64,000 nt of DNA from an uncultured Oscillospiraceae bacterium (lineage in GTDB: Bacteria > Bacillota > Clostridia > Oscillospirales > Ruminococcaceae): the NCBI GenBank assembly GCA_964472465.1, contig CAYYLW010000002.1, forward strand, positions 11,361-75,360. Direction: 5' to 3'. The notes beneath the pieces were generated by a model. That model was given only the letters and a program-made list of their open reading frames with translations. It did not search any database and was not told the origin of the DNA. Position numbers and translations under genes: made by a program. Shown one piece after another: positions 32,824 through 50,776 of the stretch. Every line of letters begins with the position of its first letter. Position 1 is the first letter of the stretch.

Positions 32824-34503
32824 ATGAGTATTGAATTGCGGGACGTAATGAAAATATTTCCATTTTCGATGGCCCGGTTGATTGCAGGCGAAGCGGGGCT
32901 CTCCCGCCCGGTGATTTCGGCCAACATCCAGGAGGTGCCCGATGTAGACCGCTGGATGAAGGGGGGAGAGATTGTGTTCACGGCCGGATACGCCTTCCAA
33001 AGCGCGGAAAACGGCTGCAAGATGATGGAAAAATTGAACCAGGTGGGAATTGCGGCCCTGGCCATAAAGCCGGGGCAGTACCTGTCTATCATTCCAGATG
33101 CGATGATAGAATGCGCGAATAGCCTGGGGCTACCCCTGTTTGAACTGCCGCAGGATTTGCCTTATATGGATTGCATTATCGCCATATTTGAGCAAATTAC
33201 ACAAAAGCAACTGTCCTTGCTAAAGCGGGTGGATAGGGTACACGCCATGCTTACCCAAACCATTCTGAACAAAGAAGGGCTGGACGGAATTTGCGATATT
33301 TTGTATGAGGTGACGGGCAACCCGGTGTTCATCACAGATTCCCACGGGGCCGTGTTTGCCGATAAGACCCACGCGGAGGATGAGGCAGATACCAACAACT
33401 ATAGAGAGATGATTTTGGGGCAACTGGAGCATTATTTCTCCCGCAGTGAGGAGAAGCATTTGCGGGAAAACCAGTGCAATATCCTTTCGCCAGGGCCCGG
33501 CCTGCGCCTGCTTATTGTGCCCATTGCGGTGCAGGCAAAGCGGATTGGCTATCTGATTTTAGACATGGTGCACAACGAGATGCTGGATGTGGACATGATA
33601 GCGTTTGAGCAGGCCAGCAGCATGGTGGCTGTGGAATTTTTGAACGAAAAGGCCCTGTGGCAACAGGAGCAAAAAGTACGTGAACAGCTTTTGGAAGATT
33701 TGCTGATGAAGCACTATGGAGATGAAAAACTGGTGATTCAACGCGGTAGATACCTAGGCTTTGACATGACAGGGCGCTACAGCCTGTTTGCCATTGATGC
33801 GGATTCGTTTGAAGAAAAACTGAAAAACGAAATGATGGACCTGGGAGAGGAGCGAGTGCAGCAAATCAAAAGCCAGGTGCAGCAGAAAATACGCGCCGGC
33901 ATGGAAAAATACCACCGCCCCAGCCTTGTGTTAGATAGAAGCATGGGGGCCATTGGGATGATTAGCATCCGCAAAGATTCGGATGTGCAGGAATGTGCCC
34001 TTGTGATTGGCGAGATTTTGGAGGAGCTGAACAAGCTGAACACCAGCCTTTCTTTTTCGGCCGGGATAGGAAGGATTAAACAGGGGATTCGGCATGTGGA
34101 AAAAGGTAGCCGGGAGGCCCTGCTGGCCATGCGTGCCGGGCGGAATTTGCAGGTGGAAAATGAAACCGGGCGGGTGCATACCTTTGATGAGGTGGGTTGC
34201 CTGAGTTTTTTGTGTGAGCTGACTGGCTCCACCGCCATGCAAGAATTTTACGAGGAATACCTGGGTTGCCTGCAACAGTATGACCAGGAAAATAACGCCG
34301 AACTGATTAAAACATTGAAATGCTATTTCGCCTGCAACAAAAATTTGCGTAAAACGGCGGAAATGTTGTTTGTCCATAAAAACTCCGTCATTTACCGGCT
34401 GGGGAAAATTGAAACCCTGATGGGCAAAAAGCTAGACCACCATCAAACTTCTTTTGATTTGCAACTGTGCCTAAAACTTCAAAGCATCCTGCGGGATGTG
34501 TAA
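32824..34503 (+). CDS. PucR family transcriptional regulator
   Basis: N-terminal PucR-like sensor domain and C-terminal HTH LRKTAEMLFVHKNSVIYRLGKIE. ATG at 32824 follows AGGAGG. Confidence 0.85.
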   Translation: MSIELRDVMKIFPFSMARLIAGEAGLSRPVISANIQEVPDVDRWMKGGEIVFTAGYAFQSAENGCKMMEKLNQVGIAALAIKPGQYLSIIPDAMIECANSLGLPLFELPQDLPYMDCIIAIFEQITQKQLSLLKRVDRVHAMLTQTILNKEGLDGICDILYEVTGNPVFITDSHGAVFADKTHAEDEADTNNYREMILGQLEHYFSRSEEKHLRENQCNILSPGPGLRLLIVPIAVQAKRIGYLILDMVHNEMLDVDMIAFEQASSMVAVEFLNEKALWQQEQKVREQLLEDLLMKHYGDEKLVIQRGRYLGFDMTGRYSLFAIDADSFEEKLKNEMMDLGEERVQQIKSQVQQKIRAGMEKYHRPSLVLDRSMGAIGMISIRKDSDVQECALVIGEILEELNKLNTSLSFSAGIGRIKQGIRHVEKGSREALLAMRAGRNLQVENETGRVHTFDEVGCLSFLCELTGSTAMQEFYEEYLGCLQQYDQENNAELIKTLKCYFACNKNLRKTAEMLFVHKNSVIYRLGKIETLMGKKLDHHQTSFDLQLCLKLQSILRDV

Positions 34504-34871
34504 GTATACTAAAATAACTGGAAGATAATTGGTTTTTTAGTACAATGACACCAAAGGTTGGCTGTGCTATGATGTGGCTGGAATACCAGCGGCAAAACCA
34601 GCAATGAACCCAATAGGAGGCGGCCCAGCGGTGGCCGCTTTCCTTTCAGCCACTATCATTAAGAAACAGAACAACACCCAAAACCCCTGTTTTCCATCCG
34701 GTAGGGAGGTTGGTTAAATTAGAGTTTGGCATTTTTGCCTGGTTCTAGTACAGAAAACGTTTCACGGCCCGTGCCCGGTACACTGCGCAGGAATACGAAT
34801 TCTCTTGAATACCCGCAGCCCAGTTAAACCATTGGTAGAAGAAACCAATTGAACACAAGGGAGGAAGAGAT

Positions 34872-35999
34872 ATGGTAAAAGCAGCAGTTTTTCTAGGAAA
34901 GGAAAAAATGGAGGTGCGTGAATTTCCGAAGCCAGAGGTGGCCCCGGATCACGCCCTGCTGAAAGTGGCTGCCTGCGGTGTTTGCGGTACAGACCCGCAC
35001 ATCTACATGGGGCATCTCAACGTGCCCGCACCGCTGATTATTGGGCATGAGTTTTCGGGCATAGTGGAGGAGTTTGGAAAAGAGTATTTGATGCAGGACA
35101 TGTATGGCCAGCCCTTGAAAGCGGGCGACCGCGTGGCCTTGGGCACCACGATGAACTGTGGCAAATGCTACTACTGCCGCTTTACCCCACACCGTAACAA
35201 CATGTGCGCCAATTGTGATATTTACGGCATCACCATGGGCATTGACCGTGCGCCCTCCCTATGGGGCGGCTATTCGGAGTATGTGTATCTGCTTCCGGGC
35301 TCCTGGATGTTCAAAATTCCCGATGATATGAGTTTTGAAGTGGCCGCCTTGTCCGACCCTTGCGCCTGCGCCACCCGCACGGTAGAGCGTGCCTTCACGC
35401 CGGGTATGCCAGGGTCTGCGGATAGCTTTGGGGTGAACAGCAGCGTGGTGGTGCAGGGGCTTGGCAGCATTGGGCTTTTGGCGGCCGCCTACGCAAAAGC
35501 CGCCGGGGCCTATCCGGTTATCGGCATTGAGGGAAACCCCACACGGATATCGTACGCCAAGAAATTTGGCTGTGACATTGTGATTGATATGAACGAATAC
35601 CCCACGGCAGAAGAACGGGTGGCCAAGGTGAAAGAGTTGACCCGGGGCCTGGGTGCCGATGTTGTGCTGGAGATGGCCGGTGTTCCCGCCGCCTTCGCGG
35701 AATCCATGCAACTGGTGCGCTGTGGCGGCAAGCTGGTGGAGTTTGGGCACTTTTCCAACGTGGGCACCACCCCCCTCAACCCCCAAGATATCGTGAACAA
35801 GGATTTGGATATTCACGGCGTGTTTGCCTATCCCAACACCCAAATTGGCGTCGCGCTGAATTTCTTGCACAATTTTGCGGATCGATTCCCCTTCCACGAG
35901 CTCATCACACACCGTTTCAATGTACAGGATACCGAAAAAGCCATTTTGGCCGGGCGAGACAAAACCTGTGTGAAGGCAATGATTGTGAACCCGGTATAA
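34872..35999 (+). CDS. zinc-dependent (MDR) alcohol dehydrogenase
   Basis: Blocks CGVCGTDPH, GHEFSG, structural-Zn Cys cluster CGKCYYC...C, and GLGSIGL Rossmann. Confidence 0.8.
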   Translation: MVKAAVFLGKEKMEVREFPKPEVAPDHALLKVAACGVCGTDPHIYMGHLNVPAPLIIGHEFSGIVEEFGKEYLMQDMYGQPLKAGDRVALGTTMNCGKCYYCRFTPHRNNMCANCDIYGITMGIDRAPSLWGGYSEYVYLLPGSWMFKIPDDMSFEVAALSDPCACATRTVERAFTPGMPGSADSFGVNSSVVVQGLGSIGLLAAAYAKAAGAYPVIGIEGNPTRISYAKKFGCDIVIDMNEYPTAEERVAKVKELTRGLGADVVLEMAGVPAAFAESMQLVRCGGKLVEFGHFSNVGTTPLNPQDIVNKDLDIHGVFAYPNTQIGVALNFLHNFADRFPFHELITHRFNVQDTEKAILAGRDKTCVKAMIVNPV

Positions 36000-36079
36000 A
36001 GCGGCAGGCGAAACCCAGTTCTGTTTGTGCACGTTTTGCGTTTTTAGGCTGAACGAGGATTCAAAGGGAGGAATTTGGG

Positions 36080-37549
36080 ATGAGTAGCAGTACTTTATTC
36101 GTAATTTTGATGGTTATCTATTTGGTTGGCACCGTTATATTTGGCGTTGTAAAGGCGAAAAAGCAAGATGAGGGTACCACGAAGGACTGGTTTGTGGGTG
36201 GTGGCAAGGTGTTTTGGGTTGCGGTGGGCTTTACCATTGCGGCCGCCTGGCTGGATATGGCCACCATCTTTTTAAACTCTGGCGAAGGTTATGTGGTGGG
36301 CATCTCGGCATTTTGGTACTTGGCCGGGGCAGAAATGGTGGCCTTCCTCATTATGACCTTCTTCTTTGCCAAACCCATTCGCAATACCGGCATGATTTCC
36401 CAGGGTGAGATGATGGAAAAACGCTTTACCCCGGCCATCCGCCCCTTTTATGCCATCATCTGGGTGTTTTCCCTCTGTGGCTACGCGGCACTCAGTTTCC
36501 TGGTCTTTAATGAGTTCTTGCAGTTCCTGTTTGGGGTAAACCAGTTTGTTTCGGCCGCTATCTGCTTGGTGGTGGTGTTGGCCTTCCAACTATTTGGCGG
36601 TTTTGCCGCCACCGTTTACGCCGATTATATCCAGGGCGCTTTAATCATCGTGGGTTCCATTGTACTGGGCATATTTGCGGTAAAGGCTGCCGGCGGTATG
36701 GGCAACATCGCCGCTGCCGTTCCGGCCGAATTTCTGAACCTCTTTGGTATTGGCGGCGGGGAAATATTGGCCCTTACGGTGCCCCTGATGCTGGCCTTTG
36801 TGATTGAGCCCACCCTTTGGATGCGGGTGGTTTCCTCCCGCAGCTTGCGCAGCGCACAAAAAGCCAACCTGTTTGCGTTTGTTGTGTACATCCCCGTGTG
36901 CATAGGCACCCTGCTTACCGGCCTGGCCGCCTATGTGCTGTACCCCAACTGGAATCAATCGCTGAATATGATTGCCGTGGATATGGCGGAAAACCTGTTC
37001 CCGGCCCCTGTTACCGCCATCATTTTTGTGGCCATTATTGCGGCGCTTATCTCCTCTTTCAACGCCTTCATGAGCGCCGCCAACATGAACCTCAGCTACG
37101 ATTTTATCCCCTCTATCTACGCGGCCATCAAGAAAAAGCCCTTCCCCGAAAACAAATACCGTTTTGTTAGCCGGATTGGCATGGTGGCCATCGCCTTCCT
37201 GGGCACCTTTATCGCCCTGTGGCTGCCTTCACTGGTGGAGATTCTGTCTTTCTCGGGCGCCTTGGCCGCTTCGGGCCTGTTCCTGCCGGTGTTCTGCATG
37301 TTCTTTAGCAAAAAGGTGAACACCACCGGCGCCATGGCCAGCTTCGTGGTGGGCTCGGCCTCCCAGCTCATCCTGTTTATTATAGACAAAGTCTCCACCA
37401 CGGGCGGGCTGGGCTTCGACGCATTCTTTGTCTCCTTCCCGCTGGCGTTTGTGGCCTTGCTTGTGGGCACCTACCTGGGTCGGCACAAACCACCCACGGC
37501 GGAACAACTGGCCCCCTTCGATATGAGCCGTTCTTCCGAGGCGAAATAA
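36080..37549 (+). CDS. sodium:solute symporter (SSS) family transporter
   Basis: 489 aa, about 13 TM segments, SSF-like sequence. Confidence 0.8.
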   Translation: MSSSTLFVILMVIYLVGTVIFGVVKAKKQDEGTTKDWFVGGGKVFWVAVGFTIAAAWLDMATIFLNSGEGYVVGISAFWYLAGAEMVAFLIMTFFFAKPIRNTGMISQGEMMEKRFTPAIRPFYAIIWVFSLCGYAALSFLVFNEFLQFLFGVNQFVSAAICLVVVLAFQLFGGFAATVYADYIQGALIIVGSIVLGIFAVKAAGGMGNIAAAVPAEFLNLFGIGGGEILALTVPLMLAFVIEPTLWMRVVSSRSLRSAQKANLFAFVVYIPVCIGTLLTGLAAYVLYPNWNQSLNMIAVDMAENLFPAPVTAIIFVAIIAALISSFNAFMSAANMNLSYDFIPSIYAAIKKKPFPENKYRFVSRIGMVAIAFLGTFIALWLPSLVEILSFSGALAASGLFLPVFCMFFSKKVNTTGAMASFVVGSASQLILFIIDKVSTTGGLGFDAFFVSFPLAFVALLVGTYLGRHKPPTAEQLAPFDMSRSSEAK

Positions 37550-37682
37550 ACGTTTTGCCCAAAGCAAGCAGGCTTCCTTGGCCAAGGCCTCCAAAGCATT
37601 CACCCAAAGGAAGGCCTGCTTGCTGCCATTCACTTATTGTCCCGCAGTGTACTGGGGATTCATACAAAAGGAGCGAAGGACT

Positions 37683-40535
37683 ATGGCAACTGTTAGAAAA
37701 ATTTTTCTCAAAGTAAACGGCGTGGAGCGGATGTTTATCTGTGATCCTGAACGGGATTCACTGGCAGACGTGCTTCGCCGCCAGGGCCTTACCGGCACCA
37801 AAGTGGGCTGTGGAACGGGCCAGTGTGGTGCTTGCTCTGTTATTCTAGATAAAAAAGTGGTGCGTGCCTGTGCACGCAAAATAAAAAGTGTACCCCAATA
37901 CAGCGAGATAACCACCATAGAGGGAATTGGCACCCCCACCAGCCTGCACCCGCTGCAATTGGCCTGGATTGCCTACAATGGCGTACAGTGCGGTTTTTGT
38001 GCGCCGGGATTCATCGTGTCTGCCTATGGCCTTCTGCAAGAAAACCAAAGCCCCACCCGGGAAGAGGTGCGGGACTGGTTCCGTACCCACCGCAACCTTT
38101 GCCGCTGCACGGGCTACAAGCACCAGGTAAACGCCGTAATGGCCGCCGCCGAAGTGATGCGCGGGGAAAAAACCATGGAGGACCTGCGGTATCAAATACC
38201 GCCGGACGGCCGCATCTATGGTACGGGGTTCCCGCGCCCATCCGCCGTGGCCAAGGTGACTGGCACCTGTGACTATGGGGATGACATCAACATAAAAATG
38301 CCGGATGGGGCTTTGCATCTGGCTTTGGTGCTGGCCCGTGTCAACCACGCCAAGGTGAAGCAGGTGGATTTTTCTGCGGCGGAAAAAATGCCGGGCTTTG
38401 TGCAGGCCATCACCTACAAAGATGTGAAAGGCACCAACCGCGTCTCCTTGCCCTCCGGTATGGCGCGTTGTGTGGCCGATGGTGTGGAGCGCCCGATTTT
38501 GACCGAGGACACGGTGTACCGCTATGGCGACGTGATTGCCATTGTGGCAGCCACCTCCCGGCGTGAAGCCCGAGACGCCGCTGCCAAGGTGCAGGTGGAG
38601 TACCAGGAAATGCCCGCCTATATGAATGCGCTGGACGCCATTGCCCCAGATGCGGAACCGATTCATTATTTCCCGAACCTGTACGCGGAATCTCCCCTTG
38701 TGGTGGGGGATGCCAAGAAGGCCATGGATGGCAGCGATTTTGTGGTGGAGAGCAGTTGCTACACCCAGCGCCAGCCCCATTTGGTCATTGAGCCGGACAC
38801 CGCTTTGTCCTATATCGACGAAGAGGGCCGGGTGACGGTGCAGTGCAAATCGCTGGACATCATCATTGCCATGGGCAGTTTGGCGGACGGCCTTGGTATT
38901 CCGCCGGAAAAAATGCGGATGATACAAAACAACACGGGTGCCAGCTTTGGCTACGCGGCCACGCCCTATACCCAGGCCGTTATGGCGGTGGCCGCCATTG
39001 CCACCCAGCGGCCTTGCTGCCTTACGCTGGATTACGAGGAACACCAGCACTTCACCGGAAAACGCATGCCCTGTTTTTCCAATGTGCGCATAGGCTGCGA
39101 CAAAGACGGCAAATTGACCGCGATGGAAGTGGAGGCACTGTACGACAAGGGCGCCTACACCGAGCTGACCGCGGGCATTTTGAAAGGTATGAAATTCATT
39201 GGAACGCCCTACACCATCCCCAATGCCACGGTGCTGACCAAAGCAACCGTAACCAACCACAATTTCACAACGGCTTTCCGTGCGTTTGGCTCCCCACAGG
39301 TGTACCCCGCGTTCGAACAGGCCATCGATGACTTAGCCGAAAAAGCCGGAATCGACCCACTGGAATTCCGCCGGAGGAATGTGTATAAAACCGGCGAGTT
39401 GTGCAGCACCGGGCACCCGATGGACATCTACACGATGGAGACCCTGTGTGACAATTTGAAACCCCGGTATCTGGCGGCCAAAGAGCGGGCTGCCAAGCAC
39501 AGCACCCCGGAAAAGCGCAGGGGCGTGGGCGTGGCCTGCGGGGTATACCATGCCAGCGCGGGGCCGCTGGACCGTAGCGAGGCCGCCCTTGAATTGAACG
39601 CGGACGGAAGCGTGACCTGTTTTAACACCTGGAGCGACCAAGGGCAGGGCGGGGATGTGGGCTCGGTTATCCACACGCATGAGGCGCTGAAGCCACTGGG
39701 CTTAAAGCCGGAGCAGATTCGCCTTGTGCAAAGTGACACTGCCATCTGCCCCCCCTCCGGCGGCGCTTACAGCAGCCGCTCGAACGTCATGGTAGGAAAT
39801 GCCATATTGGATGCCGCACGCCAATTGATGGAGGCCATGAAGAAGCCAGACGGCACCTGGCGCACCCATGCCGAGATGGTGGCCGAAGGAATCCCTGTTA
39901 AATATACCGGCGTGTTTGACCTGGCGGGTGTGGCGAACCTTTCTGCCCTAAACCCGAACGATGGCCAGGGAAACTTTTTCCTGATGTACACCTATGGCCT
40001 GTTCCTGGTAGAGGTGGAGGTGGACACGGCCAGCGGCAAAACACAGGTGCTTAGCGTGGATATGGAGGCCGACGTGGGGGTGGTTACCAACCCGCAATCT
40101 TTAGAAGGGCAGGCCTTTGGCGGTTTTGCGCAGGGCATTGGCATGGCGCTGAGCGAGGATTACGAGGACATGGAAAAGCACACCAGCCTGCTGGCCTGCG
40201 GCATTCCCACCATAGATATGGTGCCGGACGAGATGCATGTGCACCATGTGGAAACGCCCAGGGCCCTGGGGCCCCATGGCTCGGGCGGGGCGGCAGAACT
40301 TTACCTGACGGCACCGCACGCCGCCGTGCTGAATGCTTTACACAATGCCTGCGGTATCCGGGTGCGGGAACTGCCCGCCACGCCCGAAAAGGTATTGGCT
40401 GAGCTGAAAAAGAAAGCGGAAGGCGTGAACGAGCCCTACCGGCCATATTATTTGGGGGCCGATTTCCATGAGCGGATGCAAGAAATAAAGGAAAACCCTG
40501 TGCAGGTGGTTGAATTCAAAGGGTTCTCGGGCTAA
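37683..40535 (+). CDS. Mop-type molybdopterin aldehyde oxidoreductase (fused 2x[2Fe-2S] + Moco domains, no FAD domain)
   Basis: CGTGQCGACSV and CGFCAPGF...CRCTGY Fe-S motifs fused to an XDH-family a/b-hammerhead and Moco-binding domains. ATG at 37683 follows AAAGGAG. Confidence 0.85.
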   Translation: MATVRKIFLKVNGVERMFICDPERDSLADVLRRQGLTGTKVGCGTGQCGACSVILDKKVVRACARKIKSVPQYSEITTIEGIGTPTSLHPLQLAWIAYNGVQCGFCAPGFIVSAYGLLQENQSPTREEVRDWFRTHRNLCRCTGYKHQVNAVMAAAEVMRGEKTMEDLRYQIPPDGRIYGTGFPRPSAVAKVTGTCDYGDDINIKMPDGALHLALVLARVNHAKVKQVDFSAAEKMPGFVQAITYKDVKGTNRVSLPSGMARCVADGVERPILTEDTVYRYGDVIAIVAATSRREARDAAAKVQVEYQEMPAYMNALDAIAPDAEPIHYFPNLYAESPLVVGDAKKAMDGSDFVVESSCYTQRQPHLVIEPDTALSYIDEEGRVTVQCKSLDIIIAMGSLADGLGIPPEKMRMIQNNTGASFGYAATPYTQAVMAVAAIATQRPCCLTLDYEEHQHFTGKRMPCFSNVRIGCDKDGKLTAMEVEALYDKGAYTELTAGILKGMKFIGTPYTIPNATVLTKATVTNHNFTTAFRAFGSPQVYPAFEQAIDDLAEKAGIDPLEFRRRNVYKTGELCSTGHPMDIYTMETLCDNLKPRYLAAKERAAKHSTPEKRRGVGVACGVYHASAGPLDRSEAALELNADGSVTCFNTWSDQGQGGDVGSVIHTHEALKPLGLKPEQIRLVQSDTAICPPSGGAYSSRSNVMVGNAILDAARQLMEAMKKPDGTWRTHAEMVAEGIPVKYTGVFDLAGVANLSALNPNDGQGNFFLMYTYGLFLVEVEVDTASGKTQVLSVDMEADVGVVTNPQSLEGQAFGGFAQGIGMALSEDYEDMEKHTSLLACGIPTIDMVPDEMHVHHVETPRALGPHGSGGAAELYLTAPHAAVLNALHNACGIRVRELPATPEKVLAELKKKAEGVNEPYRPYYLGADFHERMQEIKENPVQVVEFKGFSG

Positions 40536-40623
40536 AATGGGCCTAGCGGCTCACACCAAATGGTTGCGGCGCGTATGCGCCGCAACCTATGTTTTATTCT
40601 AATGGCAGCAAGGGGGCTTACCG

Positions 40624-42915
40624 GTGGAAGAAAACCAGCCAGAGATGAGGGTGTTTGAGCAAAAACACAATTGCGTGCAGGGAGAAGCGCCTTTTTGCAC
40701 GGCGGCCTGCCCGCTTCACGTGGATGTGCGCCTGATGATGGCACATATTCAAAAAGAAAACTGGGAGGCCGCCCTTGAGCTGTACCGCAGTGCGGTGTTG
40801 CTTCCGGGCATCGTGTCCCGCCTGTGTACGAAGCCTTGCCGCGGTGCTTGTTTACGGGCCAAAATGGGTGATGGGCTGGAGATAGGCTTGCTGGAACGCT
40901 GCCTGGTGGAAACGGTTCCCCTTCCCCCCAAAAACCGGTTTATTCGCCCCAAAAATCAATCGGCCATCGTGGTGGGCGCAGGGCTTGCGGGGATAGCCTG
41001 TGCCCTGACGCTGGCGCAAAAAGGGTTTTTGGTTACCCTGCATGCGAACGGAGCCTACCCCGGCGGTGCCGCCGTGATGCATCCCTTGCTGGATACGACG
41101 GCCGCCATTACAGAGATAAAAACCAAACTGGAAAGCTGCGGCGTAAGCCTGCGGCTTTCCAGCCCTGTGGACGCCCCAGAAAATCTGCCGGCCGATGTGG
41201 TGCTGTTGGCGGAGGAAGAGGACGCCGCGGTGCCCGGCGGTTTGCTGGCGGGGGCTGGCGTTCCGCTGGTGCAGAACAAAGCCGACCCCCACATTTTTTA
41301 TGCCACTTACCTCCCCACGCCAGAGCGTGCCCTGGCCCAGGGAAAACAGGCGGCCAGGGCCATGGAACAGTATCTGGGGGGGCTTACTTTTCCGGTGCTG
41401 GAAGCCGCTGAACCCAAAACACGCCTATACACCCCCCTGGCCCAGGGTTTGGCGCCGCTACCGGCCACCGCCCCCGGCGAAACCGGCGCTTATACCCGCC
41501 AGCAGGCTCAAGAGGAGGCCCGGCGCTGCCCGCTTTGTGAATGCAAAGCCTGCCTGCCGCACTGTTTGTTTTTGCAGGAGGGCAAACAGCACCCCAAGCA
41601 ATATATTGTGGAAGCGCAGCAAAGCCTACGCACCCTGAAGCTTCTGCAAAGCAAGCTAAAGGCACGCCGCACCAACGCCTGCAACCTCTGTGGCCTTTGC
41701 CGGGAGTATTGCCCCGGCGGCGTGGACATGAGCGAGGTCTATCTGTACAGCCGCCGCATCATGCACAGGCAGGGGGAACTGCCGGAGGCATTCCATGCAT
41801 TTTGGCTGGAGGACATGGCGTTTTCCCAATCGGAAGAAGCCTTTCTGTGCAAGGCGGAGCCCGGGTTTGAGACGGTAGAGTATTTGTTCTTTCCCGGCTG
41901 CCAACTGGGGGGTGTGCAGCCAAGCCAGCTACAGCAGGTGTATGCGTACCTCAGGGAGCATCTTGGGGGCGGGGTGGGTATGCACCTGGGCTGTTGCGGC
42001 GCGCCCGCCGAATGGGCCGGTTATGAGGAACAGACACAGGAACTGCTGGAACATTTCCGCGCCCTGCACGCCAAACTGGGAAACCCGGTGGTGATACTGG
42101 CCTGCCCAAGCTGTGAGAAACTGTTTGCCAAATATCACGCGGACATACGGCGGATGCCGCTGTGGCAGGTGTTTTGCGAACAGGGCCTGCCCCAGGGCGC
42201 CCGGCCTGCGCAGCAGCAAGAGGTGGCCGTGTTCGACCCTTGCGCCAGCCGGTATAGCCCCCCCACGCAGGGCTATGCCCGCCGTTTGCTAAAGCAGATG
42301 GGGTACGCGGTGCAAGAGCTTCCCCACCATGGCCGCTATGCCCAATGCTGTGGGCACGGGGGGCTTATTTCGGCCTCCAACCCCCAAATGGCAAAGCGGG
42401 TGGCGGCCGATAGGGTGGCGGCCAGCAGCCTGCCGTATGTAAGCTATTGCACCAATTGCTGCGAAATTTTCCGGCGGGAGGGAAAAACAGCGTGGCATTT
42501 GCTGGATTTGTTGTTTGGGGCGGATGCCCAAAACGCGGCGGGGAGCCTGGCGCTCAGCTACTCGGCCCGGCGCGATAACCGCAGGAAACTCAAACAGACC
42601 CTGCTGAACACCTATTGGGGGGAGGCGTTTTCACTGGAAAAACCACAGGAATGGCTGGGCCTTGCGCTGGAGATACCCGGTGCTTTGCGCACGAAAATGG
42701 AAGAGCATTTGATTTTAGAAGAGAATATCCAGCAGGCCATTTACCGCGCGGAAGCCAACCAAAGCAAACTGGCCCAGGGGGAACAGTTCATCTGCCACTT
42801 ACAGATAGGGGTGGTTACCTACTGGGTTTATTACCACCCCCTGCCAGGCGGGCGGTTTGCCGTGGATAATGCGTATTGCCACCGTATGCAAATTGTAGAG
42901 GAGGCACCCAAATGA
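40624..42915 (+). CDS. fused GltD-like FAD/NAD(P) oxidoreductase, 4Fe-4S and two CCG (HdrD/GlpC-like) domains
   Basis: Cys-rich N-terminus (CTAACPLH, CTKPCRGAC), GxGxxG (VVGAGLAGIA), CNLCGLCREYCP, and CCG motifs LGCCGAP and AQCCGHGG. Confidence 0.75.
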   Translation: MEENQPEMRVFEQKHNCVQGEAPFCTAACPLHVDVRLMMAHIQKENWEAALELYRSAVLLPGIVSRLCTKPCRGACLRAKMGDGLEIGLLERCLVETVPLPPKNRFIRPKNQSAIVVGAGLAGIACALTLAQKGFLVTLHANGAYPGGAAVMHPLLDTTAAITEIKTKLESCGVSLRLSSPVDAPENLPADVVLLAEEEDAAVPGGLLAGAGVPLVQNKADPHIFYATYLPTPERALAQGKQAARAMEQYLGGLTFPVLEAAEPKTRLYTPLAQGLAPLPATAPGETGAYTRQQAQEEARRCPLCECKACLPHCLFLQEGKQHPKQYIVEAQQSLRTLKLLQSKLKARRTNACNLCGLCREYCPGGVDMSEVYLYSRRIMHRQGELPEAFHAFWLEDMAFSQSEEAFLCKAEPGFETVEYLFFPGCQLGGVQPSQLQQVYAYLREHLGGGVGMHLGCCGAPAEWAGYEEQTQELLEHFRALHAKLGNPVVILACPSCEKLFAKYHADIRRMPLWQVFCEQGLPQGARPAQQQEVAVFDPCASRYSPPTQGYARRLLKQMGYAVQELPHHGRYAQCCGHGGLISASNPQMAKRVAADRVAASSLPYVSYCTNCCEIFRREGKTAWHLLDLLFGADAQNAAGSLALSYSARRDNRRKLKQTLLNTYWGEAFSLEKPQEWLGLALEIPGALRTKMEEHLILEENIQQAIYRAEANQSKLAQGEQFICHLQIGVVTYWVYYHPLPGGRFAVDNAYCHRMQIVEEAPK

Positions 42916-43106
42916 GCGAAGCGCAGCAGCTACTGTGTATGAAATGCCAAGTGCCCTTGGAGCTGGCCCCCGTGGATTTATGTTACCTGGGGCACAGTTT
43001 TACGCAGGAATTGCCCCGGTGCCCCCGTTGCGGCCAAATGCTGGTGCCAGAAGAGCTGGTGCAGGACAAAATTCAGCCCGTGGAAATTACGCTGGAAGAT
43101 AAATAG
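42912..43106 (+). CDS. 64-aa Zn-ribbon protein (CxxC...CPRC)
   Basis: MSEAQQLLCMKCQVPLE...LPRCPRCGQ. ATGA overlap with the upstream gene suggests translational coupling. Confidence 0.6.
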   Translation: MSEAQQLLCMKCQVPLELAPVDLCYLGHSFTQELPRCPRCGQMLVPEELVQDKIQPVEITLEDK

Positions 43107-43124
43107 ACCCCGGTTTTCAAGCCC

Positions 43125-43814
43125 TCACACTTTGGCCCAAACGCCATAGGCATAGCCAAGGCCGCTTTTTGGGCCCCCAGGTTCCATGCCCATAGCCTGC
43201 CAAACCGGGGAAGACGAGCCATACTCCCACAGCAGTTTGGCCGTAAAAGCGCGCAGATGGGGCGTGGCATCCTCCCAAACCAAAGGGGAGAAGCCCGCTT
43301 TTTTTGCCAGTGTGGCCCATTGTTCCCGGCTTTTGGCCCAGATGGGGGAGGCGGCGCTATCCTGGGGGGAGTTGCCGGGGGAAACGGGCTTATAAAAATC
43401 GGTGACAATCCATTTCCCGCCGGGTTTTAGAACACGGTGTATTTCTTTCCATACCCTATAGGGGTCTTCAAACAGGCAGCAGGTACACTCGCATATCGCG
43501 GCGTCAAAATAGGCGTCACCCCAGGGGATGCTTTCCGCCCTGCCCTCGCGCAGGTCAAGCTGGGGGTAACGCTGTTTTGCTTTTTCCAGCAAAGCGGCGG
43601 CACTGTCCAGCCCCGCCACAAGGTAGCCCTGGGCGCCCAGGGCACCGGCCGTTTCGCCCAGGCCGCAGCCCACATCCAGCAGGCTCTGGCCTTTTTCCAG
43701 CCCGGCCGCCTGTACCGCCTGGTTTGTCAAAGCAAGGCCGCCGGGCCGAAGCGTTCGGCCCAGGCAGGCCTGGAAGGCGTCCTCCTCGTAGATGTTGTGG
43801 GTAAGCAAAGCCAT
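43125..43814 (-). CDS. class I SAM-dependent methyltransferase
   Basis: SAM motif I LLDVGCGLGE and post-I LVAGLD. ATG at 43814 follows AAGGGGG. The longer ORF-track N-terminus (to 44048) is unlikely. Confidence 0.8.
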   Translation of the reverse strand: MALLTHNIYEEDAFQACLGRTLRPGGLALTNQAVQAAGLEKGQSLLDVGCGLGETAGALGAQGYLVAGLDSAAALLEKAKQRYPQLDLREGRAESIPWGDAYFDAAICECTCCLFEDPYRVWKEIHRVLKPGGKWIVTDFYKPVSPGNSPQDSAASPIWAKSREQWATLAKKAGFSPLVWEDATPHLRAFTAKLLWEYGSSSPVWQAMGMEPGGPKSGLGYAYGVWAKV

Positions 43815-43925
43815 GACCCCCTTTTTGGCGCTGTGGTTTGGGTGGTGATGGATGGTGCCAGCAAGGGCTAAGCCAGCGTGTTTTTGCGCCGCAGCTGGCC
43901 CCATTTTTACCGTAGGAGGGGCGCT

Positions 43926-45182
43926 ATGAGCCCAGTGAAAAAGCAGGACGGGTGTGATTCTTTTTGGATGGAACCGTGGCTGGACAGCCTTTGCCCGGCC
44001 AGTTCCCCCGTGAAGCTGGCCCGGTGGCAGGAGGAAAAAGCGAAACAAGCCATCCTACGCGCCAAAGCGTGTAGCCCTTTTTACCAGCAGCACCTCGCCA
44101 AAGTTTCGGCCTTGGATATGGCGCGGCCCAACTGGCTGGCCCAAATTCCGTTTACGGATGCGGCCACCATTTCAAAACAAGGGCCGGGGATGCTGTGTGT
44201 GCCGGCCCATGAGGTAGCCCGCATTCGCAGCATTCCCACATCGGGCAGCACGGGCCCGGCCAAGCGTATTTTTTTCACCGAGGGAGACCTGGACAGGACG
44301 GCCCGGTTTTTTGACGCCGGAATGCGGCATATGGTGCAGCCGGGGCAAGAGGTTGCGGTGATGATGTCCAGCCCGCAAGAGGGAAGCGTTGCCGATTTGC
44401 TGGAAAAAGGGCTGGAGCGTTTTGGGGCCAAAGCGCGATTCTGCGGCCAGGTGCACAATGCCGAGCAGGCGGCCCAGGAGGCTTTGGGGGCGGCCTGCTT
44501 GGTGGGTTTGCCCTCGGAGATGCTATACCTTTGCCGCAAGGCCCCCCATCTGCGCCCCAAAACCGTGCTCCTCAGTGCCGATTATGTCTCCCCAGCCGTG
44601 GTGCAAGCCTTGCAGCAGGCCTGGGGTTGCCAAGTGTTTTCGCATTATGGGCTCACCGAGACGGGCTATGGTTTGGCCGTGCAGTGCCCCTGCCGGGAGG
44701 GCCACCACCTGCGGGCGGCGGAATTTTTGGTGGAAATTATCTGCCCCAAAACCGGGGCGGTGTTGCCCGTAGGGCAGGAGGGGGAACTGGTGCTTACCAG
44801 TCTGTGCAATGAGGCGCTGCCCCTGCTGCGCTACCGCACCGGAGACATCACCTCGCTGCTGGCCCAGCCCTGCCCCTGTGGCAGTGTGCACCCCCGCCTG
44901 GGGCCGGTGCGGGGCCGGTATACCCACCTGCAAGAGGCGGTGAACATCTATAGGCTGGATGACCTGCTCTTTTCCCTACCGGGTATGGTGGGCTATGAGG
45001 CAAGCTGGGAGAGGGAAACCCTTTGCCTGCTGGTGGAGGGCCCGGTTCTCCCGGAGCAGGAATTGCGAGACCGGCTGGGTGTTCCGCTGAAGGTGGAGTA
45101 CGGCCCGGTCAAGCTGGGCGGCCGCGAAAAGCGGCGGGTGGGCGGCGCGTTTTATGGCGGTGAACCGGCAAAACACGGATGA
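43926..45182 (+). CDS. PaaK/F390-synthetase-like AMP-dependent ligase
   Basis: Blocks TSGSTGPAKRIFF (AMP-binding P-loop), YGLTETG and YRTGD. ATG at 43926 follows AGGAGGGG. Confidence 0.8.
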   Translation: MSPVKKQDGCDSFWMEPWLDSLCPASSPVKLARWQEEKAKQAILRAKACSPFYQQHLAKVSALDMARPNWLAQIPFTDAATISKQGPGMLCVPAHEVARIRSIPTSGSTGPAKRIFFTEGDLDRTARFFDAGMRHMVQPGQEVAVMMSSPQEGSVADLLEKGLERFGAKARFCGQVHNAEQAAQEALGAACLVGLPSEMLYLCRKAPHLRPKTVLLSADYVSPAVVQALQQAWGCQVFSHYGLTETGYGLAVQCPCREGHHLRAAEFLVEIICPKTGAVLPVGQEGELVLTSLCNEALPLLRYRTGDITSLLAQPCPCGSVHPRLGPVRGRYTHLQEAVNIYRLDDLLFSLPGMVGYEASWERETLCLLVEGPVLPEQELRDRLGVPLKVEYGPVKLGGREKRRVGGAFYGGEPAKHG

Positions 45183-45234
45183 CCCGCAACCCGCCTTGCC
45201 GCCGTAGATGGCGCAGGGGCCAGGGTGGGGCGGC

Positions 45235-45984
45235 CTACCGGCTTTCCGCTAAGCGGGCCACCACGATGTAACGCTGGTCGCCCCCCACCAACTGCACACA
45301 GGTGGACATCACCAGGAAGCGGTCTTGGCTGGTGGTGTTTTCTAAGGCGAGGTTCGCGCCGGGGGCTTCGGCCATCCAGGTGATAAAATCTTGCAAAGCG
45401 CCAGGGCGCGAAAAATCTTTCCTATACAGGATGTTTTCGTCGCCCGTGGTAAAGGCGGCCACCACCTCGTAGCGGTTTTGCGACGTGGGGCTATAGAGGA
45501 ACACTTCCCGGTTCTGGGCGAAATACGCCGGGTCCTTGTACCGGTGGAGCTGGGTGAAGAAGGTGTCTTCGGAGGTGAAATGCCCATAGGCCACCGTCAC
45601 GGGGTCCCTAAAATCCTCGCTGTTGCCCATGTCTATAAAAATGGCCCCCCATTTGCTGGGCTGGCCCTCGGCGCTGGTGCGCAGGTAAAGGCTGTTGTCC
45701 ACCCCGCGCATCACGGGGTAATCTATCACCGTGCCGGGCACTTCTATCCAGCCAATGGTGTCCGCATTGCCAGCCTGCAAGGCGGCAAAATCCAGCCCGG
45801 TGCGAAACGGCTCCCGTGGTGCCGGGGCAGAGGAGGACGGCGGGGCGGTGGCCGCAGGTTCGGGCAGAACAGAAGAGGCGGGGGGCGGTTTTGCGGTTTG
45901 GCAACCGGCCAGGCCCGGCAGGAACAGGCAAGCGGCCAGCAGGGCCAGGGCGTTTGTGCGCCAAGGGCAGGGGGGCTTTGGCAT
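45235..45984 (-). CDS. class B sortase-like transpeptidase
   Basis: Blocks GWIEVPGTVIDYPVM, AYGHF, and catalytic-Cys LVMSTC...RYIVVARL. N-terminal signal with LAGC lipobox. Confidence 0.6.
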   Translation of the reverse strand: MPKPPCPWRTNALALLAACLFLPGLAGCQTAKPPPASSVLPEPAATAPPSSSAPAPREPFRTGLDFAALQAGNADTIGWIEVPGTVIDYPVMRGVDNSLYLRTSAEGQPSKWGAIFIDMGNSEDFRDPVTVAYGHFTSEDTFFTQLHRYKDPAYFAQNREVFLYSPTSQNRYEVVAAFTTGDENILYRKDFSRPGALQDFITWMAEAPGANLALENTTSQDRFLVMSTCVQLVGGDQRYIVVARLAESR

Positions 45985-46027
45985 GGGGAACTGTCCTTTC
46001 CTCGGGATAAAAAGCAGGGCAGGGCCC

Positions 46028-46987
46028 TTACAGGCCGTTTACCACGTTTTGCGGCCGGCCGGCAAGGAAACCGCGCAGGTTTGCCACCGCCGTGTCCATC
46101 AGCCGCTGGCGGGCATCCAGGGGGAGCCAGGCGTTGTGCGGCGTGATGAAACAGTTCTTAGCGCCCATCAGGGGGCAGTGGGGGTCCATGGGTTCCCGCG
46201 CCAGTACGTCCAGCCCGGCGGCATACACCTTGCCGCTTGCCAGCGCGTCGGCCAGGGCCTGTTCGTCCACCAACAGGCCCCGGGCGGTGTTCAGCAAAAT
46301 CACCCCATCCTTCATCTTGGCCAGGGTGGCAGGGTTAATAAGGCCCTGGGTCTCGGGCAGCAAGGGGCAATGCAGGCTGATGATATCCGATTCCGTCAGC
46401 AGGGTATCCAGCGGCACATAGCGGGCAATGGCACGGCCCTCTTCGGTTTCGCGGCTGCCGCTGGCCAGCACACGCATGCCCAAGGCGGCGGCCAGGCGGC
46501 CGGTTTGCTGCCCAATGGCCCCAAAGCCGATGCAGCCAAAGGTTTTGCCTGCCAGGGCCAGCAGGGGCACCCGGAAATAGCAAAAATCTGTACCAGCGGC
46601 CCATTCGCCCGCGTGCACGGTGGCACTGTGCCGCCCCACCTGGTTGGTGATTTCCAGCAGCAAAGCCAGGGTGTGCTGGGCCACCTCGTTTGTGCTATAG
46701 GCGGGAATGTTGGTAACGGGGATGCCTTTTTCCCGCGCGGCGCCCAGGTCTACAGCGTTGGTACCGGTGGAAAGAAGCCCTATATAGCGGAGGTTTTGGC
46801 AGCTTTGAATGCTTTCAGCGGAGAGATAGGTCTTGTTGGTGAAGAGGATATCGGCCCCTTCGATGCGGCTGGCCAATTCTTCGGGGCCGGTGCGGTCATA
46901 CACGGCCAGCTCCCCGGCCGCGGCAATGCCCTCCCAGGAGAGGTCTCCGGGGTTTGTGGCGTAGCCGTCCAAAATCACCATTTTCAT
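46028..46987 (-). CDS. D-isomer-specific 2-hydroxyacid dehydrogenase (glycerate/hydroxypyruvate reductase-like)
   Basis: GFGAIGQ Rossmann and the conserved TPHNAW C-terminal block. Confidence 0.85.
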   Translation of the reverse strand: MKMVILDGYATNPGDLSWEGIAAAGELAVYDRTGPEELASRIEGADILFTNKTYLSAESIQSCQNLRYIGLLSTGTNAVDLGAAREKGIPVTNIPAYSTNEVAQHTLALLLEITNQVGRHSATVHAGEWAAGTDFCYFRVPLLALAGKTFGCIGFGAIGQQTGRLAAALGMRVLASGSRETEEGRAIARYVPLDTLLTESDIISLHCPLLPETQGLINPATLAKMKDGVILLNTARGLLVDEQALADALASGKVYAAGLDVLAREPMDPHCPLMGAKNCFITPHNAWLPLDARQRLMDTAVANLRGFLAGRPQNVVNGL

Positions 46988-47439
46988 CGGCCATTTTCCT
47001 TTTCCAGCGCGGCCACTTTGGCCACCCGCCCGGCGTGCCGCCCGCCCTCAAACTCGGTGTTCAAAAACAAATCCACCATCATCTCGGCCAGGCCGCTGCC
47101 CACCACGCGCCCGCCCATACACAGGGCGTTGGCATCGTTGTGGCGGCGGGTGTATTCGGCGCTAAAGGCATCGGAGCAGCAGGCTGCCCGGATGCCGCGC
47201 ATCTTGTTGGCCGCTATGGAGATGCCCACCCCCGTGCCGCAAAACAGCAGCGCGCAGCGGCAGCTACCGTCCAATACGGCCTGGCAGGCGGGCCGGGCAA
47301 AATCGGGGTAATCCACGCTGTCGGGGCTGTTGGTGCCAAAATCCACCGTTTCCACACCCAGCTTTTCCAGGTGGGCCTTGATGTGGTTTTTCAGTTCGAA
47401 ACCGCCATGGTCGGCGGCCAGGGCAACCGGTTTATTCAT
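46984..47439 (-). CDS. rpiB: ribose-5-phosphate isomerase B
   Basis: Blocks ADHGGFELK, CGTGVGISIAANK and GGRHAGRV are typical of RpiB/LacAB. Confidence 0.9.
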   Translation of the reverse strand: MNKPVALAADHGGFELKNHIKAHLEKLGVETVDFGTNSPDSVDYPDFARPACQAVLDGSCRCALLFCGTGVGISIAANKMRGIRAACCSDAFSAEYTRRHNDANALCMGGRVVGSGLAEMMVDLFLNTEFEGGRHAGRVAKVAALEKENGR

Positions 47440-50717: not shown

Positions 50718-50776
50718 ACTATACAACTTCCTTTCTTTTGTAAAAGCAGGCATACCGTGTTCTGCATGGCCTGCTG

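Follow-up and report, generated by a model that had tools for sequence, protein, structure and literature searches.

What role is played by the uncharacterised genes around a Mop-type aldehyde oxidoreductase gene in the 64-kb stretch of DNA analysed here (the window)? The original prediction likened them to DVU1551−DVU1559 of Desulfovibrio vulgaris, where DVU_1559 is an aldehyde oxidoreductase, and to the NCBIfam families bearing DVU_155x names. This likeness was found to be correct, with all genes at the positions named, and the window is confirmed to hold a rearranged copy of a conserved, anaerobe-wide Mop gene set. In this set, Mop always comes with two dedicated redox partners, the DVU_1558- and DVU_1557-family proteins (D1558 and D1557), and usually with four helper enzymes. 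Seven of the nine D. vulgaris families (NF045663−NF045669, NF045645 and NF045646) are present in the window, six of them (Mop, D1558, D1557, methyltransferase, ligase and the radical SAM enzyme TrsS) above the curated NCBIfam cut-offs in profile searches and the seventh, a C-GCAxxG-C-C protein, narrowly below. The conserved set outside the window also includes an XdhC-type maturation factor (NF045664, XdhC_rel_AOR) and the DVU_1551 MocA+HD NTP transferase (NF045665), neither of which gave a match anywhere in the 64 kb. The set is already catalogued (NCBIfam; Aklujkar et al. 2017; Haft & Tolstoy 2025, mSystems 10:e0141724). A literature search found neither papers assigning a function to the helper proteins nor experiments on any of them, in line with the prediction that the DVU_155x families have no assigned function. 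What is new is the evidence presented below, which supports two modules, a core enzyme and a cofactor-maturation line.

The mop gene (37683−40535, plus strand) starts with an ATG preceded by an AAGGAG ribosome-binding site and encodes 950 aa, scoring 1241 bits against NF045668 (cut-off 1100). Pfam domains Fer2, Fer2_2, Ald_Xan_dh_C (a/b hammerhead) and MoCoBD_1/2 were found, with two [2Fe-2S] domains and, as predicted, no FAD domain in the Pfam search. The best PDB sequence matches were the Desulfovibrio aldehyde oxidoreductases 1DGJ (925 bits) and 1VLB (921 bits), aligned end-to-end; the window protein shares the domain order of these D. desulfuricans and D. gigas enzymes (MOD and MOP), likewise has no FAD domain and keeps the catalytic Glu of 1DGJ. 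In the structural literature the enzyme is a stand-alone homodimer for which flavodoxin is still only a 'putative' partner, replacing the 'missing flavo-domain', whereas the genomic evidence here points to D1558 and D1557 as the encoded partner.

D1558 (40624−42915, plus strand, 763 aa) reached 725 bits with the NF045663 profile, for which the cut-off is 530. Pfam (Fer4_20, one Rossmann motif, Fer4_17 and two CCG domains) and Foldseek agreed with the predicted fusion of a GltD-like Fe-S/FAD part, a 2x[4Fe-4S] region and two CCG domains. Its layout starts with an NfnB/GltD-type 2x[4Fe-4S] domain and a small FAD Rossmann domain, followed by a 2x[4Fe-4S] ferredoxin domain and two HdrB-type CCG domains; the C-terminal alpha/beta domain gave neither a Pfam nor a fold match. 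In the AF2 model (pLDDT 88), the first ~220 residues superpose on NfnB/GltD, with Foldseek matches to NfnABC/StnABC, but the NAD(P)H domain of those proteins has been lost: a single GxGxxG motif is present and a disordered loop occupies the place of the NADPH domain. Relative to NfnB/GltD, D1558 has gained an HdrD-like ferredoxin domain, the double CCG module and the C-terminal domain without a detected relative. The CCG part, with two complete CXnCCGXmCXXC motifs whose ten cysteines are all invariant, matches the EtfD/HdrD fold (EtfD, 9OJN); compared with HdrB/HdrD, DsrK and EtfD, D1558 is predicted to be soluble, with no transmembrane segment, and is fused to a flavin/Fe-S module. The combination of NfnB/GltD and EtfD/HdrD folds, the missing NADPH domain and the invariant CCG cysteines suggests that D1558 is an electron-transfer module. 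The E. coli XdhD-YgfK type pairs similarly place a Mo/Fe-S subunit lacking FAD beside a GltD-like Fe-S flavoprotein.

D1557 (42912−43106, plus strand, 64 aa) matched NF045645 (75 bits, cut-off 60) and the Pfam family DUF7479 (PF24292), and consists of a CxxC...CxxCG zinc ribbon, a helix and a C-terminal LEDK. Its start codon and the stop codon of D1558 overlap in an ATGA, in agreement with the translational coupling predicted for this small protein, and D. vulgaris has the same Mop-D1558-D1557 order and coupling. LEDK forms the chain end in 58 of 61 orthologues, and the domain lies almost always at the extreme C-terminus, also in fusion proteins. Several proteins carry D1557 as a C-terminal extension of D1558, and others join only the C-terminal domain of D1558 to D1557. 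Tandem copies of the core carry one D1557 for each D1558 in two loci (L002 and L022); a single D1557 was detected in a third (L047). D1557 and D1558 thus form one unit, given these fusions, the ATGA coupling and their joint duplication.

Beyond D1557 lies the DVU_1556-family class I SAM methyltransferase (43125−43814, minus strand, 229 aa), with its true start at the ATG at 43814 behind an AAGGGGG ribosome-binding site and a score of 182 bits against NF045667 (cut-off 155). It is transcribed divergently, across 111 bp, from the DVU_1553-family PaaK-like adenylate-forming ligase (43926−45182, plus strand, 418 aa, true start ATG at 43926). The ligase scored 370 bits against NF045666 (cut-off 300) and far under the PaaK cut-off (TIGR02155, 91 vs 646); it has 4R1L as best PDB sequence match and conserves the SGTTGxPKR, HYGMTE, RYRTGD and C-terminal KR motifs. 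The divergent methyltransferase and the PaaK/F390-synthetase-like ligase were recognised correctly. As an adenylate-forming enzyme, the ligase lacks an obvious substrate in Moco chemistry, a point against a maturation role.

The other two helpers were expected at 29.5−31.3 kb, and members of both families are indeed encoded there. The radical SAM enzyme, reportedly named TrsS by Haft and Tolstoy in 2025, belongs to the Tes/HMPTM family (29534−30871, minus strand, 445 aa) and scored 585 bits against NF045646 (cut-off 490) and 414 bits against GDGT-MAS (7TOL). It shares with Tes/GDGT-MAS and the HMPTM enzyme MJ0619 the N-terminal Cys3His ribbon, both CX3CX2C motifs and the C-terminal Cys pair. 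However, it falls under the Tes cut-off (334 vs 450), has a shorter middle region and carries Cys or Sec at position 91 in place of Thr (Cys is invariant in TrsS, and TGA is found in locus L074); it is encoded beside a Moco enzyme rather than lipid genes. A pterin C-methylase belongs to the TrsS family (Pfam Zn_ribbon_HMPTM). The gene of the C-GCAxxG-C-C protein (30864−31283, minus strand, 139 aa) shares 8 nt with the start of TrsS. This DVU_1555-like protein matched PF09719 clearly (77.7 bits vs 27), with C18, C54, C100 and C115 invariant, and narrowly missed the DVU_1555 cut-off (NF045669, 97.1 bits vs 103). Both TrsS and the C-GCAxxG-C-C protein are Cys forms in the window, not selenocysteine forms.

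Linkage was evaluated in 160 related loci from at least eight phyla, anchored on D1558 or TrsS, and co-occurrence with mop was found to be far above chance. The usual one-strand order is Mop, D1558, D1557, methyltransferase, C-GCAxxG-C-C protein, TrsS and ligase, often followed by XdhC and the MocA+HD gene, which matches DVU1559 to DVU1551. Among the 80 D1558-anchored genome loci, Mop was present in 70/70 (counted only where upstream sequence sufficed) and D1557 in 79/79. The TrsS-anchored metagenome loci contained D1558 and D1557 in 32/33 each and Mop in 30/33. D1558 directly follows Mop in 104 loci, and TrsS-ligase is the second most constant adjacent pair (106 loci). All four helper genes were found in 38 of the 55 loci with at least 8 kb on each side; the 5/55 with none of the four nearby count against a maturation role. 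The NF045664 XdhC and NF045665 MocA+HD genes stand among the helper genes in an order that varies, and the helper set is single-copy where the core is duplicated, one set serving two or three Mop paralogues. A MocA-like NTP_transf_3 plus HD protein is fused to TrsS in ~35 distinct protein clusters (46−100% identity), one such fusion lying within an intact Paludibacterium operon; other TrsS fusions involve DUF5714, which is weakly related to the C-GCAxxG-C-C protein. Of 12 related loci scanned, 2 have a Moco riboswitch preceding the mop gene set.

In the window, the usual single-strand operon is broken up and partly inverted. The genes for TrsS and the C-GCAxxG-C-C protein share an operon with an M20 deacylase gene on the opposite strand, 6.8 kb upstream of mop, and the methyltransferase gene is inverted. 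The block between the two halves (31307−37549) encodes this M20 deacylase (31307−32584, minus strand), a PucR-type regulator (32761−34503, plus strand), a Zn alcohol dehydrogenase (34872−35999, plus strand) and an SSS symporter (36080−37549, plus strand). It is specific to the window, as essentially no matches to the four genes were found next to the set in the 80 related genome loci. A terminator-like hairpin (29454−29496, minus strand; 18-bp stem and T run) directly follows the TrsS stop codon.

We propose, with about even confidence, that the set works as two modules, an enzyme of Mop, D1558 and D1557 and a maturation line formed by the helpers. Mop would oxidise an aldehyde at its Mo-pterin site and pass the electrons to its two [2Fe-2S] clusters. 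D1558, with D1557 docked on its C-terminal domain, would stand in for the FAD subunit that Mop, unlike the rest of the xanthine-oxidase family, lacks, providing the NfnB-like [4Fe-4S] pair, the FAD, two more [4Fe-4S] clusters and the HdrB-type double CCG site. A thiol/disulfide-type substrate at this site is the most likely terminal acceptor, rather than NAD(P)+ or a quinone. Purified Mop is a homodimer lacking D1558, so any complex would be weak or transient. The second module (methyltransferase, C-GCAxxG-C-C protein, TrsS and PaaK-like ligase), acting with an XdhC-type factor and a MocA+HD cytidylyltransferase encoded elsewhere in the genome, may be devoted to completing or tailoring a cofactor for the first. 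It most probably acts on the molybdopterin cytosine dinucleotide or the ligand sphere of its Mo, and this role is supported by the pterin C-methylase in the TrsS family and by the Moco riboswitches. High-resolution Desulfovibrio Mop structures show ordinary MCD, which makes an extra covalent pterin change unlikely unless it is labile or the tailoring target is something else.

Both roles suggested for the set in the original prediction, cofactor building or modification and acid activation and reduction, were weighed, and the former is favoured because of the MocA::TrsS fusions, the interleaving of XdhC and MocA among the helpers and the sharing of one helper set by several cores. The same three features make it unlikely that the helpers form a catabolic or biosynthetic pathway around Mop, in which an alcohol would be converted to an aldehyde, to an acid by Mop and to an acyl-CoA or acyl-AMP by the ligase, with TrsS and the methyltransferase modifying that metabolite. 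The complete adenylation motifs of the ligase, whose closest relatives are aryl-acid CoA ligases, and the TrsS-ligase adjacency fit such a pathway, as do the Zn- and Fe-type alcohol dehydrogenases, sigma-54 AcoR-like regulators and, at one locus, tungsten AFOR that adjoin the set, and the alcohol dehydrogenase and symporter directly upstream of mop in the window; however, the flanking dehydrogenase, transporter and regulator genes vary between genomes. Somewhat less probable is that D1557, a small acidic zinc-ribbon protein resembling LysW, is a carrier with a chemically used C-terminus. Its terminal Lys might be acylated by the ligase and built by TrsS, the C-GCAxxG-C-C protein and the methyltransferase into a lipoyl- or biotin-like swinging arm reduced at the D1558 CCG site, or its C-terminal carboxylate might be adenylated, as in MoaD and ThiS. 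The LEDK end, a domain that nearly always reaches the last residue, the ability of HdrB-type CCG sites to reduce disulfides and the fact that the set combines an adenylating enzyme and a Cys/Sec protein with a radical SAM enzyme bearing auxiliary clusters are consistent with this. Nevertheless, D1557 is duplicated with each core copy and the ligase is not, the MocA::TrsS fusion suggests a nucleotide-linked cofactor over a protein substrate, and we know of no ANL-family enzyme that adenylates protein C-termini.

D1558 and D1557 might instead be a reductase for maturation (for example, of the TrsS clusters or the cofactor) rather than the electron acceptor of Mop, given that radical SAM enzymes require a low-potential reductant and that D1558, lacking an NAD(P)H domain, resembles a pure electron relay. 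This is improbable, since the two proteins accompany Mop where TrsS is missing within 8−10 kb, are duplicated one-for-one with Mop when TrsS is not, and D1558 so regularly follows Mop directly. Chance juxtaposition of genes with unrelated functions, as the split set on both strands with unrelated genes mixed in might suggest, was rejected with near certainty: the linkage counts, obtained with either of two anchor genes, refute it, and protein fusions of three kinds tie members of the set together.

As for the acceptor, the D1558 family was also found in Acetobacterium and C. ljungdahlii, which lack quinones; with D1558 having no membrane segment either, a membrane electron carrier is unlikely. 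Such a carrier has been proposed for C. ljungdahlii, where tandem four-gene sets (CLJU_RS11815-11830 and RS11850-11870) were flagged by Aklujkar et al. 2017 (PMC5640608), who left their function open. These sets likewise have a Mop-type AOR, the FAD/CCG fusion, a four-Cys small protein and a C_GCAxxG_C_C protein, and are described without the methyltransferase, TrsS or ligase. Alcohol dehydrogenase genes adjoin several loci, as in the window, and would fit a plain catabolic role as against maturation.

The genes in question were found to be a rearranged member of an already catalogued gene set, that of the Desulfovibrio vulgaris neighbourhood DVU1551-DVU1559, all nine families of which have curated NCBIfam models named for D. 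vulgaris locus tags. The original prediction had made this match correctly: six of the seven window proteins scored above their family cut-offs, and the C-GCAxxG-C-C protein fell just short of its own. Linkage was evaluated by tblastn with the window proteins in the best 80 of 523 related loci from species-representative genomes, anchored on D1558, the 763-aa FAD/Fe-S/CCG fusion (DVU_1558 family). These loci came from Bacillota, Desulfobacterota, Chloroflexota, Actinomycetota, Spirochaetota, Bacteroidales, Holophagaceae and Synergistota. Mop, the 950-aa Mop-type aldehyde oxidoreductase, was present in 70 of the 70 loci with enough upstream sequence, and D1557, the 64-aa DVU_1557-family protein, in 79 of the 79 with enough downstream sequence. 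The four helper genes, MTase (DVU_1556 methyltransferase), CGCA (C-GCAxxG-C-C protein), TrsS (radical SAM protein) and the PaaK-like ligase (DVU_1553), were found in 47, 47, 46 and 44, respectively, of the 55 loci with at least 8 kb on both sides, together in 38 and with no helper in 5. In the reverse test, 33 TrsS-anchored metagenome loci with enough flank contained D1558, D1557 and the ligase in 32 cases each and Mop in 30. The proposed co-occurrence with mop was thus seen with either anchor. The gene set occurs widely among sulfate reducers, syntrophs, acetogens and gut Bacillota. Its commonest architecture, Mop-D1558-D1557-MTase-CGCA-TrsS-ligase on one strand, matches DVU1559 down to DVU1553 exactly. 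Clustering of the leftover ORFs gave two further recurrent members, an XdhC-type factor (NF045664, 'XdhC family aldehyde oxidoreductase maturation factor') and a MocA-like NTP transferase with an HD domain (MocA+HD; NF045665, 'DVU_1551 family'), both missing within ~8-10 kb in about half of the well-flanked related loci. Some loci also carry a CobC-like histidine phosphatase, a MoeA-like protein, sigma-54 regulators and Fe-type alcohol dehydrogenases.

The instance itself is not new; concrete, testable predictions do follow from its fusions, from the tail of D1557 and from the pattern of copy numbers. A four-gene core was described in C. ljungdahlii by Aklujkar et al. 2017 (PMC5640608), who called for study of its redox reactions and reported one set as up-regulated on syngas and/or H2/CO2. 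The searched literature assigned no function to DVU_1553, DVU_1555, DVU_1556 or DVU_1557, in line with the original prediction, and gave nothing functional for DUF7479.

Mop is encoded on the plus strand (37683-40535), its ATG preceded by an AAGGAG site, and matched NF045668 ('molybdopterin-dependent aldehyde oxidoreductase') with 1241 bits against a cut-off of 1100. The Pfam order in this single chain of 950 aa is two [2Fe-2S] domains, hammerhead and MoCoBD_1/2; no FAD domain was found over the 950 aa by Pfam scan, in agreement with the predicted Mop-like molybdoenzyme without one. The alignment with the Desulfovibrio enzymes 1DGJ and 1VLB runs from end to end (~925 bits), and the catalytic glutamate close to Mo (Glu869 of the D. 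gigas enzyme) is kept, with ...GGAAELYLTAPHAA... of the window protein pairing with ...SGVGEMPLTAPHAA... of 1DGJ. Desulfovibrio Mop was the first xanthine-oxidase-family enzyme with a solved structure; its structures contain an ordinary MCD, and the enzyme purifies alone. To our knowledge, its physiological substrate and electron acceptor are still unsettled after some 40 years, and the gene set bears on this old question of partner and acceptor. In a 2023 review of the D. gigas AOR, flavodoxin is still given as a putative (docked) partner in place of the 'missing' flavo-domain, and activity is described without the usual sulfido ligand. In a D. vulgaris proteome, DVU_1559 is entered as 'Aor' under ethanol metabolism.

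D1558 (40624-42915, plus strand) starts ~88-89 bp downstream of the Mop stop codon and scored 725 bits with NF045663 (cut-off 530); its nearest species-representative relative (L001) is only 45% identical. According to the AlphaFold model (pLDDT 88) and Foldseek, the N-terminus is an NfnB/GltD-type domain that would hold two [4Fe-4S] clusters. Downstream of it come, in this order, a small Rossmann domain, a ferredoxin domain of the 2x[4Fe-4S] type and a pair of CCG domains. Model, motifs and family score agree with the GltD-like Fe-S/FAD, 2x4Fe-4S and twin CCG modules originally predicted for the fusion. A single GxGxxG motif is present (residue 118), ~140 residues separate the Fe-S domain from the ferredoxin domain, and a disordered loop (200-211) occupies the place of the NAD(P)H domain of GltD and NfnB. 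Unlike these NAD(P)H-dependent flavoproteins, D1558 showed no second dinucleotide-binding domain in the motif scan or the AlphaFold model. Because of the single motif, the ~140-residue span and the loop, D1558 probably binds FAD and not NAD(P)H. Both CXnCCGXmCXXC motifs are present, with C426/C457/C458/C494/C497 and C540/C575/C576/C609/C612 invariant in an alignment of 24 homologues; these ten cysteines are those of the HdrB-type motifs, and the CCG region resembles mycobacterial EtfD (9OJN) by Foldseek. No membrane segment is predicted in D1558. An alpha/beta domain, modelled with confidence, makes up the C-terminal ~130 residues and has invariant Arg, Glu, Trp, Tyr and His. Pfam gave no match to it and Foldseek no significant one; the best hits, to small toxin folds (E-value 0.02), were taken as uninformative.

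D1557 (42912-43106, plus strand, 64 aa) scored 75 bits with NF045645 (cut-off 60) and belongs to Pfam DUF7479. Its start codon lies within the D1558 stop codon (ATGA overlap), in line with the translational coupling predicted for a CxxC...CxxC protein. A CxxC...CxxCG ribbon is followed by a helix, and the window copy ends in LEDK, the C-terminal end of 58 of 61 orthologues, with LEEK or LEQK in the other three. A word-index search with the 64 aa had given two proteins only and was superseded by an exhaustive search of 1.84 billion representatives, which gave 177 relatives. In almost all of these the alignment extends to the very C-terminal residue, and several are D1558::D1557 fusions of ~690-915 aa or join the D1558 C-terminal domain to D1557. 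Because of this terminal position and these fusions, D1557 amounts in effect to a C-terminal domain of D1558 that can be detached and whose free tail is constrained.

Among the helper genes, TrsS (29534-30871, minus strand) scored 585 bits with NF045646 (cut-off 490) and is not Tes, with 334 bits for NF045702 against a cut-off of 450. Judged by sequence, it is a sister family of Tes; the GDGT-MAS tetraether synthase (7TOL) is a close relative (414 bits), and the Cys3His ribbon and both CX3CX2C motifs are common to TrsS and Tes/GDGT-MAS. Residue 91 is an invariant Cys in TrsS, Thr in Tes and an in-frame TGA in Aminivibrio (L074), which agrees with the '(seleno)protein' of the family name; the family entry describes a radical SAM selenoprotein and cites Haft & Tolstoy 2025. 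The in-frame TGA was seen this once only, none being seen in the CGCA genes of the genome loci, and the window set is, on its sequences, a Cys-type member of the gene set. CGCA (30864-31283, minus strand) overlaps TrsS, passed Pfam PF09719 and reached 97.1 bits with NF045669 (cut-off 103); its four family cysteines are present and invariant, and no sequence relative was found in the PDB. MTase (start 43814, minus strand, 229 aa; NF045667, 182 bits vs. cut-off 155) and the ligase (start 43926, plus strand, 418 aa; NF045666, 370 bits vs. cut-off 300) diverge over 111 bp, and their scores bear out the divergent SAM methyltransferase and PaaK-like ligase first proposed. The ligase matches 4R1L in the PDB and keeps every adenylation motif; it is not PaaK (TIGR02155, 91 bits vs. 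cut-off 646), with which it has only fold and motifs in common.

The co-linear single-strand order is broken in the window, where TrsS and CGCA lie upstream on the minus strand and MTase is inverted. Of the two genes at 29.5-31.3 kb that were originally proposed to complete the set, TrsS passed its family cut-off and CGCA fell just short of its own. A tblastn search of all 64 kb gave no match for XdhC or MocA+HD; a MoeA-like protein and a CobC-like phosphatase are likewise absent from the 64 kb. TrsS and CGCA form a minus-strand operon with an M20 deacylase, closed by a strong terminator. The deacylase gene (ArgE/DapE family, 31307-32584, minus strand) belongs to the same gene run and precedes CGCA by 23 bp, an arrangement that did not recur among the best 80 of 523 related loci. 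A LysK-like role of M20 as release enzyme for a LysW-like carrier was rejected as a general feature because the gene is not conserved beside the set. The PucR regulator, Zn-ADH, SSS symporter, sortase B and 2-hydroxyacid dehydrogenase genes flanking the window copy are, like M20, not conserved at related loci.

Copy number, interleaving and fusions set a stoichiometric core apart from a shared helper set. Three loci with a duplicated core (L002, L022, L047) have each helper gene once; in L002 and L022 every copy of D1558 is accompanied by a separate D1557 with a terminal LEDK, and in L047 one D1557 only was detected. Candidatus Formimonas has three core loci, two of them with no helper gene nearby, and C. 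ljungdahlii has two tandem core sets (Aklujkar et al. 2017, PMC5640608). The helper genes are mixed with XdhC and MocA+HD in an order that varies between loci. TrsS is joined to the MocA-like NTP transferase and HD domain in ~35 distinct 90%-identity clusters (830-875 aa, down to 46% identity) from Telmatospirillum, Azospirillaceae, Dongiaceae and Paludibacterium, the intact operon of the last reading XdhC, Mop, D1558, DUF7479, MTase, CGCA, [MocA-HD-TrsS], ligase, phosphatase. A further type of fusion joins TrsS to DUF5714, a weak relative of C_GCAxxG_C_C. This C-terminal domain, with a GxCAxxGxCG-like stretch weakly matching C_GCAxxG_C_C, was observed in L021 (4446-6620), L162 (6066-8249), P0352, P0359, P0374 and P0385; L162 has no MTase gene.

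A two-module model is judged to have an even chance of being right. The working enzyme would consist of Mop, D1558 and D1557, with D1558 providing the flavin and Fe-S relay that Mop is without, and electrons would go through D1558 to its own HdrB-like CCG site. NAD(P)+ is an unlikely acceptor since D1558 is without an NAD(P)H-binding domain, and a quinone was rejected for the CCG site since D1558 is soluble, without a predicted membrane segment, and its family extends to the quinone-free acetogens Acetobacterium and C. ljungdahlii. With both unlikely, a thiol/disulfide acceptor is the best guess, CGCA being one candidate. MTase, CGCA, TrsS and the ligase, in concert with XdhC and MocA+HD, would mature the cofactor of this enzyme. 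The target would be the pterin cofactor or the ligand sphere of Mo because of the Moco cytidylyltransferase link and the TrsS relative MJ0619/HMPTM, which, going by Pfam naming, C-methylates a pterin. The ordinary MCD and the solitary purification of Desulfovibrio Mop speak against this model, as does the absence of an obvious Moco substrate for the ligase. A fuller version, rather doubtful as a whole, is that the four helpers with XdhC and MocA+HD make an undescribed, probably labile form of Moco or Mo ligand, maybe with S or Se, lost in aerobically purified Desulfovibrio Mop, that D1558/D1557 is the long-sought physiological flavoprotein partner of Mop, coupling aldehyde oxidation to disulfide reduction, and that the LEDK tail is functional and possibly modified.

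The fusions and the copy-number pattern that favour a shared helper set speak against a catabolic acid-activation pathway around Mop, which is considered unlikely even though it is supported by regulators and ADH genes close to several loci and within the window. D1557 could instead be a carrier, its terminal Lys or carboxylate being acylated or adenylated by the ligase and then elaborated by TrsS, CGCA and MTase; this is attractive through the constrained, almost always terminal LEDK tail, but it is without direct support and regarded as distinctly unlikely. The one-to-one duplication of D1558/D1557 with Mop contradicts a role of the pair as a reductase for maturation only, which is held to be very improbable, and chance juxtaposition, excluded by the linkage counts, has a negligible probability. 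The set points to a specific encoded Mop partner, D1558/D1557, and to a dedicated maturation line with a Tes-like radical SAM enzyme. If the helpers do tailor the Mo cofactor, they would represent a new branch of Moco biosynthesis, and if the CCG site reduces a disulfide, aldehyde oxidation would be tied to thiol-based energy metabolism.

Several further features were observed around the set. The GC content is 0.57-0.61 in the TrsS/CGCA/M20 segment, 0.58-0.62 from Mop to the ligase and 0.48-0.555 in the PucR/ADH/SSS block between them (compared over 30000-32000, 38000-47000 and 32000-37999, respectively); a set that was once contiguous may have been split here by an insertion. A perfect 11-bp GC-rich hairpin (GGTTGCGGCGC...GCGCCGCAACC, 40562-40587) lies in the 88-bp gap between Mop and D1558 and, being without a clear T run, may serve in mRNA processing, in mRNA stability or as an attenuator. 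Between the SSS symporter and Mop, a long inverted repeat with mismatches (GCAAGCAGGCTTCCTT ... AAGGAAGGCCTGCTTGC, 37563-37625) has no Rfam match, and no Rfam family, the Moco riboswitch included, was found in the window. Two of 12 related loci scanned have a Moco riboswitch upstream of the mop set (RF01055, 50-61 bits), namely L019 (Sporomusa silvacetica, 3295-3409) and L063 (Desulfuromonadaceae MAG, 5014-5135 and 19172-19291), the second copy in L063 lying after the operon. In the Paludibacterium locus L161 (14572-16340), a small ferredoxin and a tungsten-type aldehyde:ferredoxin oxidoreductase (AFOR_N/AFOR_C) directly follow the Mop set, and the locus therefore holds two unrelated aldehyde oxidoreductases. 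The window also has a second xanthine-dehydrogenase-family locus (50106-53672, minus strand), comprising an FMN_red-type flavoprotein (50106-50753), an XdhA-like Mo subunit (50777-53032, 751 aa, under all equivalog cut-offs) and a [2Fe-2S] subunit (53034-53672); like Mop, it is without a CoxM/XdhB-type FAD subunit. Two BMP/PnrA-type nucleoside ABC transporter operons (21473-28246, plus strand, with an adenine-deaminase-like amidohydrolase at 26507-28246, and 53805-59943, minus strand) and the PucR-family regulator (32761-34503) are also present, and the mop set looks to be placed in a purine/nucleoside utilisation region of the genome. A lipoate-protein ligase (48585-49571, minus strand; TIGR00545 above cut-off) and a dihydrolipoamide-dehydrogenase-like flavoprotein (61715-63121, minus strand), both within 20 kb of the set, gave no sign of a tie to it. 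The ~1.2 kb from the amidohydrolase to the TrsS terminator (28259-29500) contains only ORFs without a family match (28546-29016, plus strand; 28531-28980 and 29229-29780, minus strand), and its minus strand has a promoter-like site close to the consensus (28560-28533).
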